Source: Escherichia coli
Lineage (GTDB): Bacteria > Pseudomonadota > Gammaproteobacteria > Enterobacterales > Enterobacteriaceae
Direction: 5' to 3' (one strand)
NCBI RefSeq assembly: GCF_041248615.1
Contig: NZ_CP158426.1
Length of the DNA stretch: 64,000 nt
This document shows, in pieces, positions 3,001 through 9,000 of the stretch. A program made the position numbers. How positions within the stretch are numbered: the first letter of the stretch is position 1; each line of letters starts with the position of its first letter.

Positions 3001-6000
3001 CGCTGATTGAGAGCATTCCTGAAGGTGGGCGAATGGATGTGAGCGCAGAGCGTTTACCTGAACTGGATGCCGATTTTGTTTTTGCAACCTGGCGCGGTGA
3101 CACCGGTGGTAAACCTCAGGATGAGCTGGCAGCAATGGAAAAAGTCATGCCGGGATGGTGTCAGTTTCTGACGGCCTGTCGTTCCGGGCGCTATGTGCTG
3201 ATTTCTCGTGAAGAGGCGATTTCTAACTCCTTTGCATCTCTGGGGCTGATGGCTGCGCAGATACAATCACAAATTGCGGGACGACCTCTACCGGAGGCTA
3301 AATGATCCAGAAAGACAAAACGCGGGTTGATATTTATGGTGAGCGTTTTCGCACTCGCGCGAGTCAGTTAACGCCTGGGTTAAGAACTGTCGCAAGCTAC
3401 ATTAATGAGCATCGTGAAGTGGTACTCGAGCAAACGGCGATGGAAATTGCGGCCACGTTGAACACTTCCGATGCCACAGTTATCAGGGCTATACAGGCTC
3501 TGGGGTTTGCCGGGCTGCGTGATCTGAAACGCACACTGGAACAGTGGCTTGGTCCAGCCCTTAGTTCCAGCGAAAAGATGTCTACGACGGTGAGTAACTT
3601 GACGAGCGATGTTAACACCGCAATCGACTTTGTTCTTGAAGGGCATTTGTATACTTGTAATGTCCTGTCAGAGCCTGAAAACCGCCACGCGCTTGCGCAA
3701 GCTGTAGCGTTGTTGGTGCAGGCACGGCAAGTCGCTATTTTTGGCATTGGCGCTTCGGGTATCCTGGCGGACTATACCGCACGACTATTCAACCGCATAG
3801 GTTTGCCTGCCACGGCACTAAACCGTACGGGTATTGGCCTTGCCGAGCAACTGATCGCGCTTCAACGTGGCGATGTTCTGATCATGATGGCGCAAAAATC
3901 TGCGCACCGGGAAGGGCTGACAACGCTTCGTGAGGCGAGGCGGCTGGGGATCCCTGTTATTTTGCTGACAAACGCGCTGGATTCACGTTTTAGCAAAGAC
4001 GCCAGTATCGTGATTCATGTTCCGCGCGGGGATGAAAAGGGGAAAACGCCACTACATGGTACGGTATTGTTGTGCCTGGAAATGATTGTTTGGTCGGTGG
4101 CTTCCGCGATGCCGCAGCGTGCGGTTAAAACCATTAAGCGAATTAACGATTTCCATCGGGGTTTGAAAACGGGAAGAAAGAATGGCTAATCTGACCTGAG
4201 GCCGGTAGCAACACCGGCCTCTTTTCAGGAATGTTAAATCCCCGGTTGCAGAATACGGATATTCATCTCCAGCACGTCGCCTTTTACGGCTTCGCTGTAC
4301 GCCTTCATGTGCGGGGTTTGCAGATGCGCTTCAAGATGCGCGATGCTTTCCCACTGCTCAATCATCACGATAGAATCCGGTGCCATAGACTGGAAACTCA
4401 CGCCAGCAGCGCAATCCACCATTGGCGCATAGCCGTGGCAACCTTCTTCTTTCAGTACGGTTGGAACGATTTTAGCAAACTGATCCAATACTGCCTGACG
4501 GTGATGTTGACCAGGACGAGTACGGATTTCTGCGATTACGGTAAGCATGGTTAACTCCTTCTAAAGCCTGAGCTCTAGTTAACCAAAAATTTCCACAAGA
4601 TGCTTGCGATATTCTTCAGTATAGCGGGGAACATCAGGCATTTTTATCACGTCATTAGCGATAAATGTCGGCAGCGGTTCCATGCCAAGGAATTGGTTTG
4701 CTTTATGGAACGGCAGATACACACCGTCAACGCCAACGCCGTGGAAGAACTGATCTTTTTCGGTGAAGGCTTCCATTGGTGCGTTCCAGGTCAGAGAAAG
4801 CATATATTTTTTGCCCTGTACCAGGCCGCCGGAACCGTATTTTTTCGACGGATCTTTGCGGGTACGACCATCGCTGGCATACAGCGTCCCGTGACCTTCG
4901 GTGAATACATCATCAATGTATTTTTTCACTGTCCACGGCGCGCCCATCCACCAGCCTGGCATCTGCCAAATCACCACATCAGCCCAGAGAAAGTTTTGTA
5001 CTTCCGCTTTGACATCGTAGTCGCTGTCGGCGCGAACGATGCGGACATCATGCCCGAGGTCGCGCAGTGTGCCATCCGCGACTTCGGTCAGGGTGTCGTT
5101 CAGTTGACCATTGGAGTGGGCGAATTTTTTCGCGCCGTTGATAATCAGGATGTTGCTCATTTTTTAACCTCAAGGTGAGACGTTTGTCGACTATAGTACG
5201 TCACAGAGCGGTACGGTGAAATTAGCAAAATGTGCAAAGTCTTTTGCTAATTTAGCAAAAGTCTGATCTTGCTCTGACTCACCGATGCAGGATAAATATT
5301 TTCTGAAAATGACAATACTGATAGCAATTTCTCATCATTCCAACTAGCACAGGGTTAATTTACAACGTTGGTGTGGACTTTCTGCGAGTTGATAATTGTG
5401 GTGATGCTGCCAACTTACTGATTTAGTGTATGATGGTGTTTTTGAGGTGCTCCAGTGGCTTCTGTTTCTATCAGCTGTCCCTCCTGTTCAGCTACTGACG
5501 GGGTGGTGCGTAACGGCAAAAGCACTGCCGGACATCAGCGCTATCTCTGCTCTCACTGCCGTAAAACATGGCAACTGCAGTTCACTTACACCGCTTCTCA
5601 ACCCGGTACGCACCAGAAAATCATTGATATGGCCATGAATGGCGTTGGATGCCGGGCAACCGCCCGCATTATGGGCGTTGGCCTCAACACGATTTTCCGC
5701 CATTTAAAAAACTCAGGCCGCAGTCGGTAACCTCGCGCATACAGCCGGGCAGTGACGTCATCGTCTGCGCGGAAATGGACGAACAGTGGGGATACGTCGG
5801 GGCTAAATCGCGCCAGCGCTGGCTGTTTTACGCGTATGACAGGCTCCGGAAGACGGTTGTTGCGCACGTATTCGGTGAACGCACTATGGCGACGCTGGGG
5901 CGTCTTATGAGCCTGCTGTCACCCTTTGACGTGGTGATATGGATGACGGATGGCTGGCCGCTGTATGAATCCCGCCTGAAGGGAAAGCTGCACGTAATCA

Positions 6001-9000
6001 GCAAGCGATATACGCAGCGAATTGAGCGGCATAACCTGAATCTGAGGCAGCACCTGGCACGGCTGGGACGGAAGTCGCTGTCGTTCTCAAAATCGGTGGA
6101 GCTGCATGACAAAGTCATCGGGCATTATCTGAACATAAAACACTATCAATAAGTTGGAGTCATTACCCACGCTCGTTATTTGTTTGGTTTGTGGTTGGTG
6201 GCTTTTTTGGGGACGGTTTATATTTTGCTAATAGTAAAATCTATGAGAGTCGTTTTAACGGCTCTCATAGACAGAGAAGTTACCAGCTCACCTTCGCCTC
6301 AAATCCACCTTGTTCCGCATTCCCAAACTCAACATTCATGCCATGCAATTTGGCGATTCGCTGGACAATCGATAGCCCAAGTCCACTGCCGGTAGCGGTT
6401 TGTCCGGGTGGGCGATAGAAGCGTTCGCCAATTCTCGCCAGTGCCTCTGGCGTCACACCGGGGCCGTTATCCCTCACGATGAAACTATCGGCATTCAGCG
6501 TGACGTCCACCACGCTGCCCTGTGGACTGTAGCGCACGGCGTTATCCAGAAGGTTTCGTACCAACAAACTTAGCAACAGCGGTTGTCCGGTGCGTTTGAT
6601 GCCGTGGGCATTGAGTGTCAGTCGCACGTCAATTTTCGCCTGCTGCGCCGTGTGGTAAATATCCATCACCGATGATTGCAGGAGATCTTCAAGCGGGATC
6701 TCCGCGACGTCCTGAAGGTTATCCAGTGAGTCCAGCCGCGATAGCGTGAGCAGTTGATCAACCAGACGAGTAGCACGATCGATTCCGGAATGTAATTGAA
6801 GCAGCGCTTTTTTCCGCGCCTGCGGATCATCGTCAGAGAGCTGCGCAACTTCGGTTTGCACTTTCAGCGCCGTTAACGGGCTACGAAGTTCGTGAGCTGC
6901 GTCGGAGGTAAAGCGTCGTTCTCGAACCATCATCGCATGTGTGCGGGCGAACAGTTGATTCAACGACTCAACCAGTGGACGCACTTCGCTGGGTACGCCC
7001 GTCGCGTTTAGTGGTTTTTCCGAGTCAGGGTCACGCATACGTAGTGCCAGCGCCAGTTTGTTCAGCGGCGCGAGTTCACGACCCAGTAGTACCATCATGA
7101 TGATTAACATAATCGGCAGTGCGACAAGCCACGGGATCAATTGCCCTGCAACAATCGCCAGCGCCATGTCTTCGCGGTATTCCCATTCCTGACCAACAAC
7201 GATGCGATATTTGCCATCAGGTGAGGTCATCCAGACAAAACGCCAGGGATCGTCTTCACCGACCAGTTGCCCGTCAGCAAAACCTTCCCGTTGATAGCTA
7301 TAGGGAATATCTTCTCCGTTATCGCCATCGTTAAGGACCATTCTGCCGTCGTGGGTAAAGATGGCAAAGGTTAGCGCATCGTCATCAACATGACCGTGTT
7401 TTAATTTATTTGGCGTCTGTGCCATGCGATCTGCCGCGTTGATTTCGTTGAGATCGAGCGTACTTAACCGCTTGGCAAACAGCATCAGTTGGGTGTCGAA
7501 CAACTCATCGACGTTATCCGTTGTTTGTTTCCAGGCGACAAAGCTGGAAAGCAGCCAGGTCACTGAGGCCAGAATTAAAAAGATTAGCGTCAGCCTGACT
7601 CGCAGACTAAGACGTTGGGTAAATTTCATTTCTCACCTAATGTGTAGCCAATACCATGAACGGTACGAATAAAATCACTGCCGAGTTTGCGTCGCAGATG
7701 ATGCACATGCACTTCAACGGCATTACTGGTGACCTCTTCGTCCCAGGTATACAGTTTCTCTTCAATCAGTTTGCGCGGCAGTACCCGACCAGCGTTACGC
7801 ATCAGTAATTCCAGCAGGGCAAATTCTTTTGGTTTCAGAGTTAAGGGTTCGCCAGCCAGCGTGGCGATACGTTTGCCGGGGTCGAGCATGACGTTACCGT
7901 GGCGCAGTTCGTTGCTGGCCTGGCCGTTGGTTCGGCGCATCAGAGCTTCCAGCCTGGCGGCGACTTCTATCAACGCAAAAGGTTTACACAGATAATCGTC
8001 AGCTCCCAGACGCAGCCCCTCTACACGTTCCGCTAACGCATCGCGCGCGGTCAGGATCAGTACCGGCTCACGCTGACCTTTTTCTCGCCATTCGCGCAAA
8101 ATATCGCGACCATCCATGCCTGGTAAGGTTAAATCCAGGATCACCGCATCATAAGGCGCACTATATAGCGCCTCTTTTCCCTGACGACCTTGTGTAAACC
8201 AGTCGACGCTAAAACCCATTTTACTAAGGCCCGTTTTGATGCCGTCGCCAATCAGCATGTCATCTTCTATCAGTAAAATTCGCATTTTTTCATCCCTGCG
8301 ATAACCGTATTTGCTGCCAGTAAACCGTGTTGTAACGCGCTCTGTACAGCATTAAATTTTATTTTTTTCCCTTAAGAAGTTGTTAAGGACTATCTTGTTA
8401 AATGCTCGGAAACAGACATTAAAGGGAGTAATAAACATGAAAAAATTCGCAGCAGTAATCGCAGTAATGGCCCTGTGCAGCGCACCGGTGATGGCAGCAG
8501 AGCAGGGCGGTTTTTCTGGCCCATCGGCAACGCAAAGTCAGGCCGGAGGATTCCAGGGGCCGAACGGCAGCGTAACGACCGTAGAAAGCGCAAAATCCCT
8601 GCGTGACGACACCTGGGTAACCCTGCGCGGCAATATCGTTGAACGCATCTCTGACGATCTCTACGTGTTCAAAGATGCCAGCGGTACTATCAATGTTGAT
8701 ATCGACCACAAACGCTGGAACGGCGTGACGGTGACGCCGAAAGATACGGTTGAGATTCAGGGTGAAGTCGATAAAGACTGGAATTCTGTTGAAATTGACG
8801 TCAAACAGATCCGCAAAGTAAATCCGTAATTGTTACCGCTCCCGGGACACATTCCCGGGAATAATTTCGCAGGGAGGCAAAATGACAAACCTGACACTGG
8901 ATGTAAATATTATCGATTTCCCATCAATCCCTGTGGCGATGTTGCCGCACCGCTGTAGCCCTGAGTTGCTCAACTACAGCGTGGCGAAATTTATCATGTG

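Follow-up and report, generated by a model that had tools for sequence, protein, structure and literature searches.

The interval between mdaB and qseC in strain NRZ14408

The window analysed here is a stretch of 64,000 nucleotides from the clinical isolate Escherichia coli NRZ14408 (NZ_LT599825.1, positions 864001-928000). In this strain, an IS1 element separates mdaB from qseC, and the 3' end of ygiZ, a small membrane-protein gene that is uncharacterised in K-12, abuts its right end (Table 1).

Table 1. Features of the mdaB-qseC interval, in window coordinates
Feature	Position	Strand	Remarks
mdaB	4579-5160	-	intact; protein accession same as in relatives
mdaB upstream region	5161-5399	-	retained, 239 bp; no difference from the intact relative
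Left flanking 9 bp	5391-5399		GATAATTGT; not repeated on the right side
IS1	5400-6167	+	intact, IS1B-type isoform, 768 bp; sole IS1 copy in the window
IRL, left terminal inverted repeat of IS1	5400-5422	+	GGTGATGCTGCCAACTTACTGAT
insA / insB'	5455-6152	+	InsAB' transposase, via -1 frameshift
IRR, right terminal inverted repeat of IS1	6145-6167	+	ends ...ATCAATAAGTTGGAGTCATTACC
Right flanking 9 bp	6168-6176		CACGCTCGT
ygiZ 3' remnant	6168-6231	+	64 bp: last base of codon 89, codons 90-109 (TLVICLVCGWWLFWGRFIFC) and stop
Hairpin	6240-6271		14-bp stem, retained; between the stop codons of ygiZ and qseC
qseC	6280-7629	-	intact; WP_000673372.1, same in CFSAN061763

The preliminary description of this DNA had reported an IS1 with intact ends, and both terminal repeats were indeed found on an element of the expected length. 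The repeats are imperfect (18 of 23 positions complementary), as is typical of the IS1 family with its terminal repeats of about 23 bp. The transposase genes also have the family arrangement, with insA at 5455-5730, an A6C frameshift motif (AAAAAAC) at 5706 and the insB frame running up to 6152; the RefSeq annotation gives an intact IS1B-family transposase with a programmed frameshift. Copies that match it at all 768 bp are carried by other E. coli chromosomes and by plasmids. Since it is complete, encodes an intact transposase and matches a widespread isoform, it is plausibly active.

What the element lacks is the duplication of 8-9 bp (rarely of other length) that surrounds a simple IS1 insertion. 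Re-examination revealed no direct repeat of 7-14 bp abutting the IS1 ends, the best pairing having 5 of 12 matches, in agreement with the earlier statement that the 9-bp flanks are not direct repeats. The duplication is a property of the insertion event and not of the element; its absence therefore shows that the event was secondary or non-canonical, not that the element is a different one.

The ygiZ remnant has neither a start codon nor a promoter, and its reading frame opens at 6169, reads TLVICLVCGWWLFWGRFIFC and ends with the stop at 6231. The interval contains no complete ygiZ (DUF2645, PF10840) gene, for which a reading frame of about 109-110 codons with a start and a promoter of its own would be expected. 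It had been suggested that ygiZ was missing; this holds for an intact gene, but the gene is truncated rather than wholly absent. The hydrophobic in-frame remnant that had been described at the junction corresponds to the peptide FGLWLVAFLGTVYILLIV, which is encoded (ORF 6180-6395) but not in the YgiZ frame. As the 3' fragment persists, the window carries the derived, deleted state.

The genes on both sides were spared. The first 104 bp upstream of mdaB are conserved in 5,425 of 5,426 genomes, and the whole 239-bp upstream region is unchanged from that of the intact relative; no mapped mdaB promoter was found in the literature searched, and the intactness of the promoter, which it had been proposed to check, is argued from conservation only. 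On the qseC side, the 69-nt segment holding the hairpin (6222-6290) has a free energy of -24.8 kcal/mol (z = -5.65). A consensus scan returned no canonical terminator site, so the hairpin is a putative, though probable, convergent terminator. No hybrid promoter was detected by consensus scan on the strand leading out of IS1 towards either mdaB or qseC, and inspection of the outward-facing IS1 ends gave only poor -10 candidates.

Extent of the deletion and other IS1 copies in the interval

The deletion was mapped against strain CFSAN061763, the closest relative with an intact locus, from which the window differs by one SNP in 3,117 flanking bp. CFSAN061763 has 384 bp exactly where the window has IS1, and the flanks are 100% identical at both breakpoints. 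DNA contiguous with one end of an intact IS is thus missing, which is the structure expected of an IS-mediated adjacent deletion. The endpoints, which it had been proposed to map by such an alignment, lie after 5399 (L001 1282) and before 6168 (L001 1667), the latter at a distance of 4 bp from a site where strain F829 has an IS1 inserted independently. The missing segment consists of 118 bp upstream of ygiZ, including its promoter region, and the first 88 codons of the gene. The mdaB-qseC interval minus IS1 measures 351 bp (239 + 112), matching the earlier estimate of about 350 bp; K-12 has 696 bp there and the closest relative 735 bp. Both window junctions were found in one of 5,426 complete E. 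coli genomes, which indicates that the event is recent and lineage-specific.

The interval is AT-rich (30-38% GC), and IS1 occurs in it in about 20 other genomes, at 10 or more sites and in both orientations; genomes with even one IS1 there make up about 0.4%. Ten of these other copies were checked and serve as an internal control. In nine, a target duplication of 8-9 bp is present (imperfect by a single mismatch in one case); the tenth, in strain R2, has no duplication and lies beside a much larger deletion.

Origin of the allele

Observed directly are an intact IS1 that lacks a duplication, the absence of exactly 384 bp that a near-identical relative retains, and the restriction of the allele to this strain. 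It had been proposed that this reflects either an adjacent deletion or recombination between two IS1 copies, and not a simple insertion; the replacement of 384 bp by IS1, together with the duplications carried by the other copies, supports that view. Both processes are documented as frequent reasons why a duplication is missing (PMC11708052). Several mechanisms would yield one and the same final sequence, and the end product alone does not separate adjacent deletion from recombination between IS1 copies.

The most likely cause is the insertion of IS1 followed by a transposase-mediated adjacent deletion, to which we assign a probability of roughly 0.55. According to this scheme, a recent ancestor of NRZ14408 would have acquired IS1 by transposition in the AT-rich ygiZ islet, presumably with a normal 8-9-bp duplication. 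A replicative, intramolecular transposition driven by the element's own transposase would have followed, one IS1 end attacking a target on the same DNA at a distance of 384 bp. Such a reaction would keep a single IS1 copy with the attacking end joined to the new target, while the intervening DNA would be lost as a non-replicating circle and IS1 left without matching flanks. As a result, ygiZ would be deprived of its promoter, its start codon and its first 88 codons, with mdaB and its upstream region, qseC and the hairpin left as they were. The order of events, the end that moved and the agency of transposase rather than host recombination are what we infer.

A precursor insertion at the left site would be expected to read GATAATTGT/IS1/GATAATTGTGGTG..., with the junction string GAGTTGATAATTGT/GGTGATGCTGCC and with GATAATTGTGGTGTTG at the other IS1 end, and an insertion at the right site to give the junction string TATGTATTCACGCTCGT/GGTGATGCTG. 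In none of the 5,425 other complete genomes does IS1 stand at one of the two junctions with a duplication beside it and the adjoining DNA in place. For the right site, YgiZ::IS1 read-through proteins with 9-, 8- and 10-bp duplications were also constructed and looked up by exact match in public assemblies. None is on record, while the positive control, the F829-type fusion, was found, short-read contigs included. A left-site precursor would leave ygiZ intact and so has no protein signature.

The same end product would result if two IS1 copies in direct orientation had stood 384 bp apart (...GATAATTGT and CACGCTCGT...) and RecA-dependent recombination had removed one copy with the DNA between them, a mechanism that is likewise documented (PMC11708052). 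The interval is a hot spot with many insertion sites in both orientations, and the independent F829 insertion shows that IS1 can land 4 bp from the right junction. This course nevertheless seems unlikely: it takes three events rather than the two needed for an adjacent deletion, among them two same-orientation insertions in one lineage where so few genomes have even one, and no complete genome has either single-insertion junction or the two-copy precursor. The element itself is a standard isoform with exact copies elsewhere and not a new mosaic, although identical parents would leave none. A deletion independent of transposase has a comparably small chance. In this case, IS1 would have inserted at the right-hand ygiZ site, duplicating CACGCTCGT, and slippage or illegitimate recombination between GGTGTTG on the chromosome and GGTGATG at the IS1 tip, 393 bp apart, would have removed what lay between. 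The first four bases of IRL, GGTG, are also the first four of the deleted chromosomal segment (6 of 7 positions agree over the longer match), an identity right at the left junction that is expected by chance in about 0.8% of cases for random breakpoints in the interval. As the transposase reaction has no need of it, the identity hints at a homology-guided alternative, and the right-hand site lies within the demonstrated IS1 target, next to the F829 insertion. Against this stand the right-site fusion proteins, absent from a look-up that detects the analogous F829-type fusion, and the length of the match: 4 bp is at the low end of the range for short-homology deletions, which are far less frequent than IS1-promoted deletions.

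The ends of an incoming IS1 may also have been joined to targets 384 bp apart, so that insertion and deletion occurred together and no duplication arose. This one-step course is more doubtful still, and we know of no example of it for IS1. It would account for the lack of a precursor allele in the complete genomes and in the right-site protein look-up, but this is weak evidence, since the collection holds one genome of the NRZ14408 clone. Duplication-less one-step movement has been proposed for IS5 and IS481; in the E. coli long-term evolution experiment (LTEE), however, 14 of 14 IS-plus-deletion events were two-step adjacent deletions (PMC11708052). It is very improbable that the allele is an assembly artefact, in which a genome with an IS1 copy on each side of the 384 bp, or with a simple insertion, was collapsed at the repeat. 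The allele is recorded in one assembly, for which the collection offers no independent confirmation. The authors of the genome paper, however, include the DSMZ long-read group, from which the use of long reads is deduced, and 2 x 768 + 384 bp would fit within reads of several kb. The flanks, moreover, are otherwise error-free against the relative, and a similar IS1 deletion without duplication is present in the unrelated assembly of strain R2.

Significance and relation to known systems

Gene loss driven by insertion sequences is well known, which makes the present case an ordinary one: a further IS1-associated deletion confined to one strain, in a clinical genome already published. Its consequence is small, as ygiZ is already absent from about 15% of E. 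coli and mdaB and qseBC are intact. Its value is that of a cleanly mapped example with internal controls from the same element in the same interval. The interval is a recurrent IS1 target, and in one strain the QseBC two-component system has been lost.

In some E. coli lineages, and in Chania, Serratia and Pectobacterium, a DUF2645 gene occupies the third place, tightly coupled, in a conserved cassette, after hcp and a gene for an unknown protein (X) of 236-240 amino acids. The genomic contexts of the cassette are unrelated; that of Serratia sits on a 75.6-kb record which also encodes a RepB-type protein. The orphan hcp called hcp2B in APEC is at a different locus. Motifs E-S, G-x-x-x-x-Q and Y-N-x-G are invariant in the middle protein. 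The 236-amino-acid protein found beside ygiZ in other lineages gave no sequence match in Pfam, NCBIfam or PDB, with single sequences or profiles. Its predicted structure may weakly resemble the fold of lytic transglycosylases and Tse3; the AlphaFold model is poor (pLDDT 56) and the Foldseek matches to lytic transglycosylases have E values of at least 0.055, so that they are a hint only.

The place of ygiZ homologues in this module suggests that ygiZ may be an orphan type VI secretion (T6SS) immunity gene. We put forward tentatively, as a possibility with the odds somewhat against it, that the mdaB-qseC interval is a decaying T6SS effector islet, present as hcp-X-ygiZ, as ygiZ only or not at all and eroded repeatedly by IS1, and that NRZ14408 has lost its protection against cassette-bearing attackers. 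If true, this would provide a testable function, T6SS immunity, for an uncharacterised K-12 gene and for DUF2645, and would matter more than the deletion.

Adjacent deletion promoted by IS1 was reportedly described in gal by Reif and Saedler in 1975, and replicative IS1 deletions are said to have been studied by Turlan and Chandler in 1995. In those classical systems, gal and replicative intramolecular deletion alike, an intact IS1, contiguous loss, no duplication and an AT-rich target are found, as in the window. The window differs in that it comes from a natural clinical isolate, has a small loss of 384 bp and GGTG microhomology at one junction, and is known from its end product. The 'IS-del' mutations of IS150 in the LTEE also have an IS without a duplication, beside deletions of 14 bp to 49 kb, and were attributed to an insertion with a subsequent adjacent deletion (PMC11708052). 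IS150, however, belongs to the IS3 family and its precursors were recovered at earlier time points, whereas the window has an IS1-family element with no precursor available.

Simple IS1 insertions are also present in the same interval (F829, H10407, GPEC1040/C10, USVAST219, EC21Z-137, ET846, KL53 and NT1F25). They share the element family and the AT-rich target, and ygiZ is disrupted in several; in contrast to the window copy, with no duplication and 384 bp gone, they have 8-9-bp duplications and no DNA missing. Strain R2 (NZ_CM143107.1) resembles the window in having IS1 without a duplication; the left junction of the R2 copy falls within ygiZ, and DNA to its right has been lost. Its deletion of several kb removed qseC, qseB, ygiW, ygiV and part of mqsR, joining ygiZ to mqsR. 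The window deletion, in contrast, is on the opposite flank of its IS1 with respect to the 3' end of ygiZ, and qseBC is left intact. The R2 allele shows that IS1-adjacent deletions recur at this locus.

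IS1 and the deletion between mdaB and qseC

By sequence identity, the window corresponds to positions 864001-928000 of the chromosome of E. coli NRZ14408 (NZ_LT599825.1), according to its published description a carbapenem- and colistin-resistant clinical isolate. It holds only one IS1 copy, annotated in RefSeq as an intact IS1B-family transposase; since further E. coli chromosomes and plasmids carry exactly identical 768-bp copies, the element is an ordinary isoform. The preliminary description had stated that its ends lack a 9-bp direct repeat, and re-examination over 7 to 14 bp revealed no abutting direct repeats there, the best score being 5 of 12 matches; there is therefore no target-site duplication.

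Without IS1, the mdaB-qseC interval measures 351 bp, close to the earlier estimate of about 350 bp, compared with 696 bp in K-12 MG1655; in the closest relative, CFSAN061763 (NZ_CP042899.1), its length is 735 bp. This strain is 100% identical to the window in both flanks, shows a single SNP across the surrounding 3,117 bp and encodes MdaB and QseC under the same protein accessions. The position of IS1 corresponds exactly to 384 bp in this relative (1283-1666 of its locus, L001), made up of the 118 bp that precede ygiZ and 266 bp (88 codons plus 2 nt) from the start of the 330-bp ygiZ open reading frame, and alignment of the interval to K-12 gave the same endpoints. As had been claimed, no intact ygiZ is present; the last 64 bp are what remains of it, and since thousands of genomes have the whole gene, this 3' fragment shows that the window represents the derived, deleted state. 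The hydrophobic peptide originally quoted as an in-frame remnant is not in the YgiZ frame: it is encoded by a mechanical ORF (6180-6395) whose frame begins at 6168, whereas the YgiZ frame starts at 6169, reads TLVICLVCGWWLFWGRFIFC up to the stop codon and ends at 6231.

Features of the window and location of the hcp-containing cassette in other genomes
Feature	Position	Strand	Remarks
ygiN	4234-4548	-	
mdaB	4579-5160	-	
Left flank of IS1	5391-5399		GATAATTGT
IS1, 768 bp	5400-6167	+	both terminal inverted repeats, insA and insB frame present
A6C frameshift motif of IS1	5706		
Right flank of IS1	6168-6176		CACGCTCGT
Strong hairpin, 14-bp stem	6240-6271		between ygiZ and qseC stop codons; retained
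qseC	6280-7629	-	
qseB	7626-8285	-	
Three-gene cassette, USVAST219 (L016)	3493-5024		
Three-gene cassette, KL53 (L019)			
Three-gene cassette, loci L020, L022, L024	2505-4058		

Several other features of the window were observed. An iron-siderophore ABC transporter operon with a MurR/RpiR regulator (1-4189) adjoins ygiN where K-12 has parE directly adjacent, an arrangement common to O157:H7, USVAST219 and CFSAN061763. At 8882-11080, ygiS comes right after ygiV, without the mqsR-mqsA toxin-antitoxin pair that separates them in K-12. The stretches 37303-39846 and 40359-44905 hold a nested IS3-family structure, in which an ISEc31 insertion splits an IS1397 transposase gene, and, immediately downstream of it, a frameshifted pseudogene of sslE (lipoprotein metalloprotease); the pseudogene in turn precedes the type II secretion genes (gsp).

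Recurrence of IS1 at the locus and origin of the deletion

Junction-spanning queries of 5,426 complete E. coli genomes recovered both junctions in NRZ14408 alone, which makes the event recent and specific to this lineage. The interval as such (5161-6279 in the window) is a recurrent IS1 target, with 10 or more insertion sites occupied in about 20 of these genomes and elements inserted in either orientation; anchored searches placed IS1 no more than ~570 bp from the mdaB-proximal anchor in 12 genomes for the plus orientation and in 9 for the minus orientation. The ygiZ islet has a GC content of 30-38% vs 50-60% in its flanks, which fits the preference of IS1 for AT-rich targets. Ten other IS1 alleles of the interval were examined for duplications. 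Perfect 8- or 9-bp duplications were found in F829, H10407, GPEC1040, C10, USVAST219, EC21Z-137, ET846 and KL53, and a 9-bp duplication with one mismatch in NT1F25; these simple insertions serve as an internal control for the usual outcome of IS1 insertion here. The site used in F829 is 4 bp from the right IS1 junction of the window. In strain R2 (NZ_CM143107.1), an IS1 lacking a duplication (3039-3806 of its locus, L015) joins a truncated ygiZ to a truncated mqsR, with qseC, qseB, ygiW and ygiV deleted beside it; R2 is thus a natural QseBC-null strain, and it owes this to a deletion associated with IS1 in this same region.

Further rearrangements were observed in other strains. F829 carries a second IS1 of the IS1A type (5302-6069 of its locus, L003) in opposite orientation, 2.2 kb from the ygiZ insertion and without target duplication, in a ygiW annotated as missing its N-terminus, which suggests another IS1-linked rearrangement. 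In 23AR1101 (NZ_CM132250.1), the mdaB-side and ygiZ-side IS1 junctions (698131-698377 and 718778-718937) are on opposite strands and separated by ~20 kb, which suggests that an IS1-mediated inversion has one of its ends in the interval. EC21Z-137 also has ISKpn26 there.

Adjacent deletion and recombination between insertion sequences are documented as common reasons for missing duplications (PMC11708052). The replacement of 384 bp with no duplication agrees with the preliminary description, which had proposed one or the other in place of simple insertion; the observation is real and its interpretation essentially right. The end product matches intramolecular replicative transposition of IS1, i.e., an adjacent deletion following insertion, and this reading is favoured, with a probability of roughly 0.55, because it would take only two events, IS1 is notorious for such deletions and R2 offers a second one. 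Recombination between two direct IS1 copies is unlikely, as a single lineage would have to acquire two insertions in the same orientation, and even one IS1 occurs in only ~0.4% of genomes.

No more probable is a slippage model that begins with IS1 insertion at the right-hand site, the segment then being removed through microhomology at the left junction. This explanation is kept alive by a detail not noted in the preliminary description: the deleted segment starts with GGTGTTG and IS1 with GGTGATG (4 bp perfect, 6 of 7 overall). At least four matching bases of this kind would occur at only 5 of 735 positions of the interval, and the chance at either junction is ~0.8%. The YgiZ::IS1 fusion proteins predicted for such a precursor (with 9-, 8- or 10-bp duplications) were not found by exact look-up in public assemblies. 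The look-up itself works, since the analogous F829 fusion was recovered on 12 contigs, short-read assemblies included; at least 1,000 contigs carry the intact 109-aa YgiZ allele. A one-step insertion with concomitant deletion is more improbable still, and a collapse in the assembly is the most far-fetched of the explanations.

Neighbouring genes and the loss of ygiZ

All 239 bp upstream of mdaB in the window are retained and unchanged, and its promoter, which the preliminary description had asked to check, is very probably intact. No mapped mdaB promoter was found in the papers searched; it very probably lies within the retained part, because the first 104 bp upstream are present in 5,425 of 5,426 complete genomes and the entire interval of O157:H7 is only 109 bp long (2501-2609 of the strain Wll001 locus, L008). 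The closest IS1 tolerated in other strains is 131 bp from the mdaB start codon, and no convincing outward hybrid promoter was predicted from IS1. The deletion has no detectable effect on the neighbouring genes.

The product of ygiZ, an inner-membrane protein of 109-110 aa, belongs to DUF2645. BglJ-RcsB acts as an activator of the ygiZ promoter (PMC3950696), and overexpression of the gene confers better tolerance of sabinene (PMC7181518). ygiZ is dispensable and variable: 829 of 5,426 complete genomes are without its 3' end, O157:H7 lacks the entire gene, the NT1F25 copy is frameshifted and a 98-aa variant without the C-terminal residues is found on 124 contigs.

Relation of ygiZ to an hcp-containing cassette

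In USVAST219, KL53 and strain 1449, the interval contains hcp, a gene for a 236-aa hypothetical protein and ygiZ. Homologues of the 236-aa protein are restricted to Enterobacterales, and in Chania multitudinisentens, Serratia and Pectobacterium each has an Hcp gene on one side and a DUF2645 gene on the other. Successive genes overlap or abut at their stop and start codons, and the cassettes lie in unrelated genomic surroundings. Across E. coli and these genera, the products measure 159 aa (Hcp), 236-240 aa (middle protein) and 110-112 aa (DUF2645/YgiZ); one database entry is an Hcp fusion. Type VI effector-immunity cassettes linked to Hcp have this layout, which suggests that YgiZ acts as an immunity protein in T6SS; K-12-type ygiZ would then be an orphan immunity gene.

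Searches of Pfam, NCBIfam and PDB sequences gave no match for the 236-aa protein, and its AlphaFold model is poor (pLDDT 56). Among the top 23 Foldseek hits, 22 were lytic transglycosylases or the T6SS muramidase Tse3, all with E ≥ 0.055, a weak resemblance in predicted fold. The invariant residues (E82, G114/S115/Q119 and Y188-N189-x-G191) resemble the motifs of family-1 lytic transglycosylases and provide a lead. Gene loss associated with IS1, seen here in a published genome, belongs to a kind of phenomenon that is already known; some potential for novelty lies only in the possible T6SS-immunity role of ygiZ/DUF2645, outside the deletion itself.
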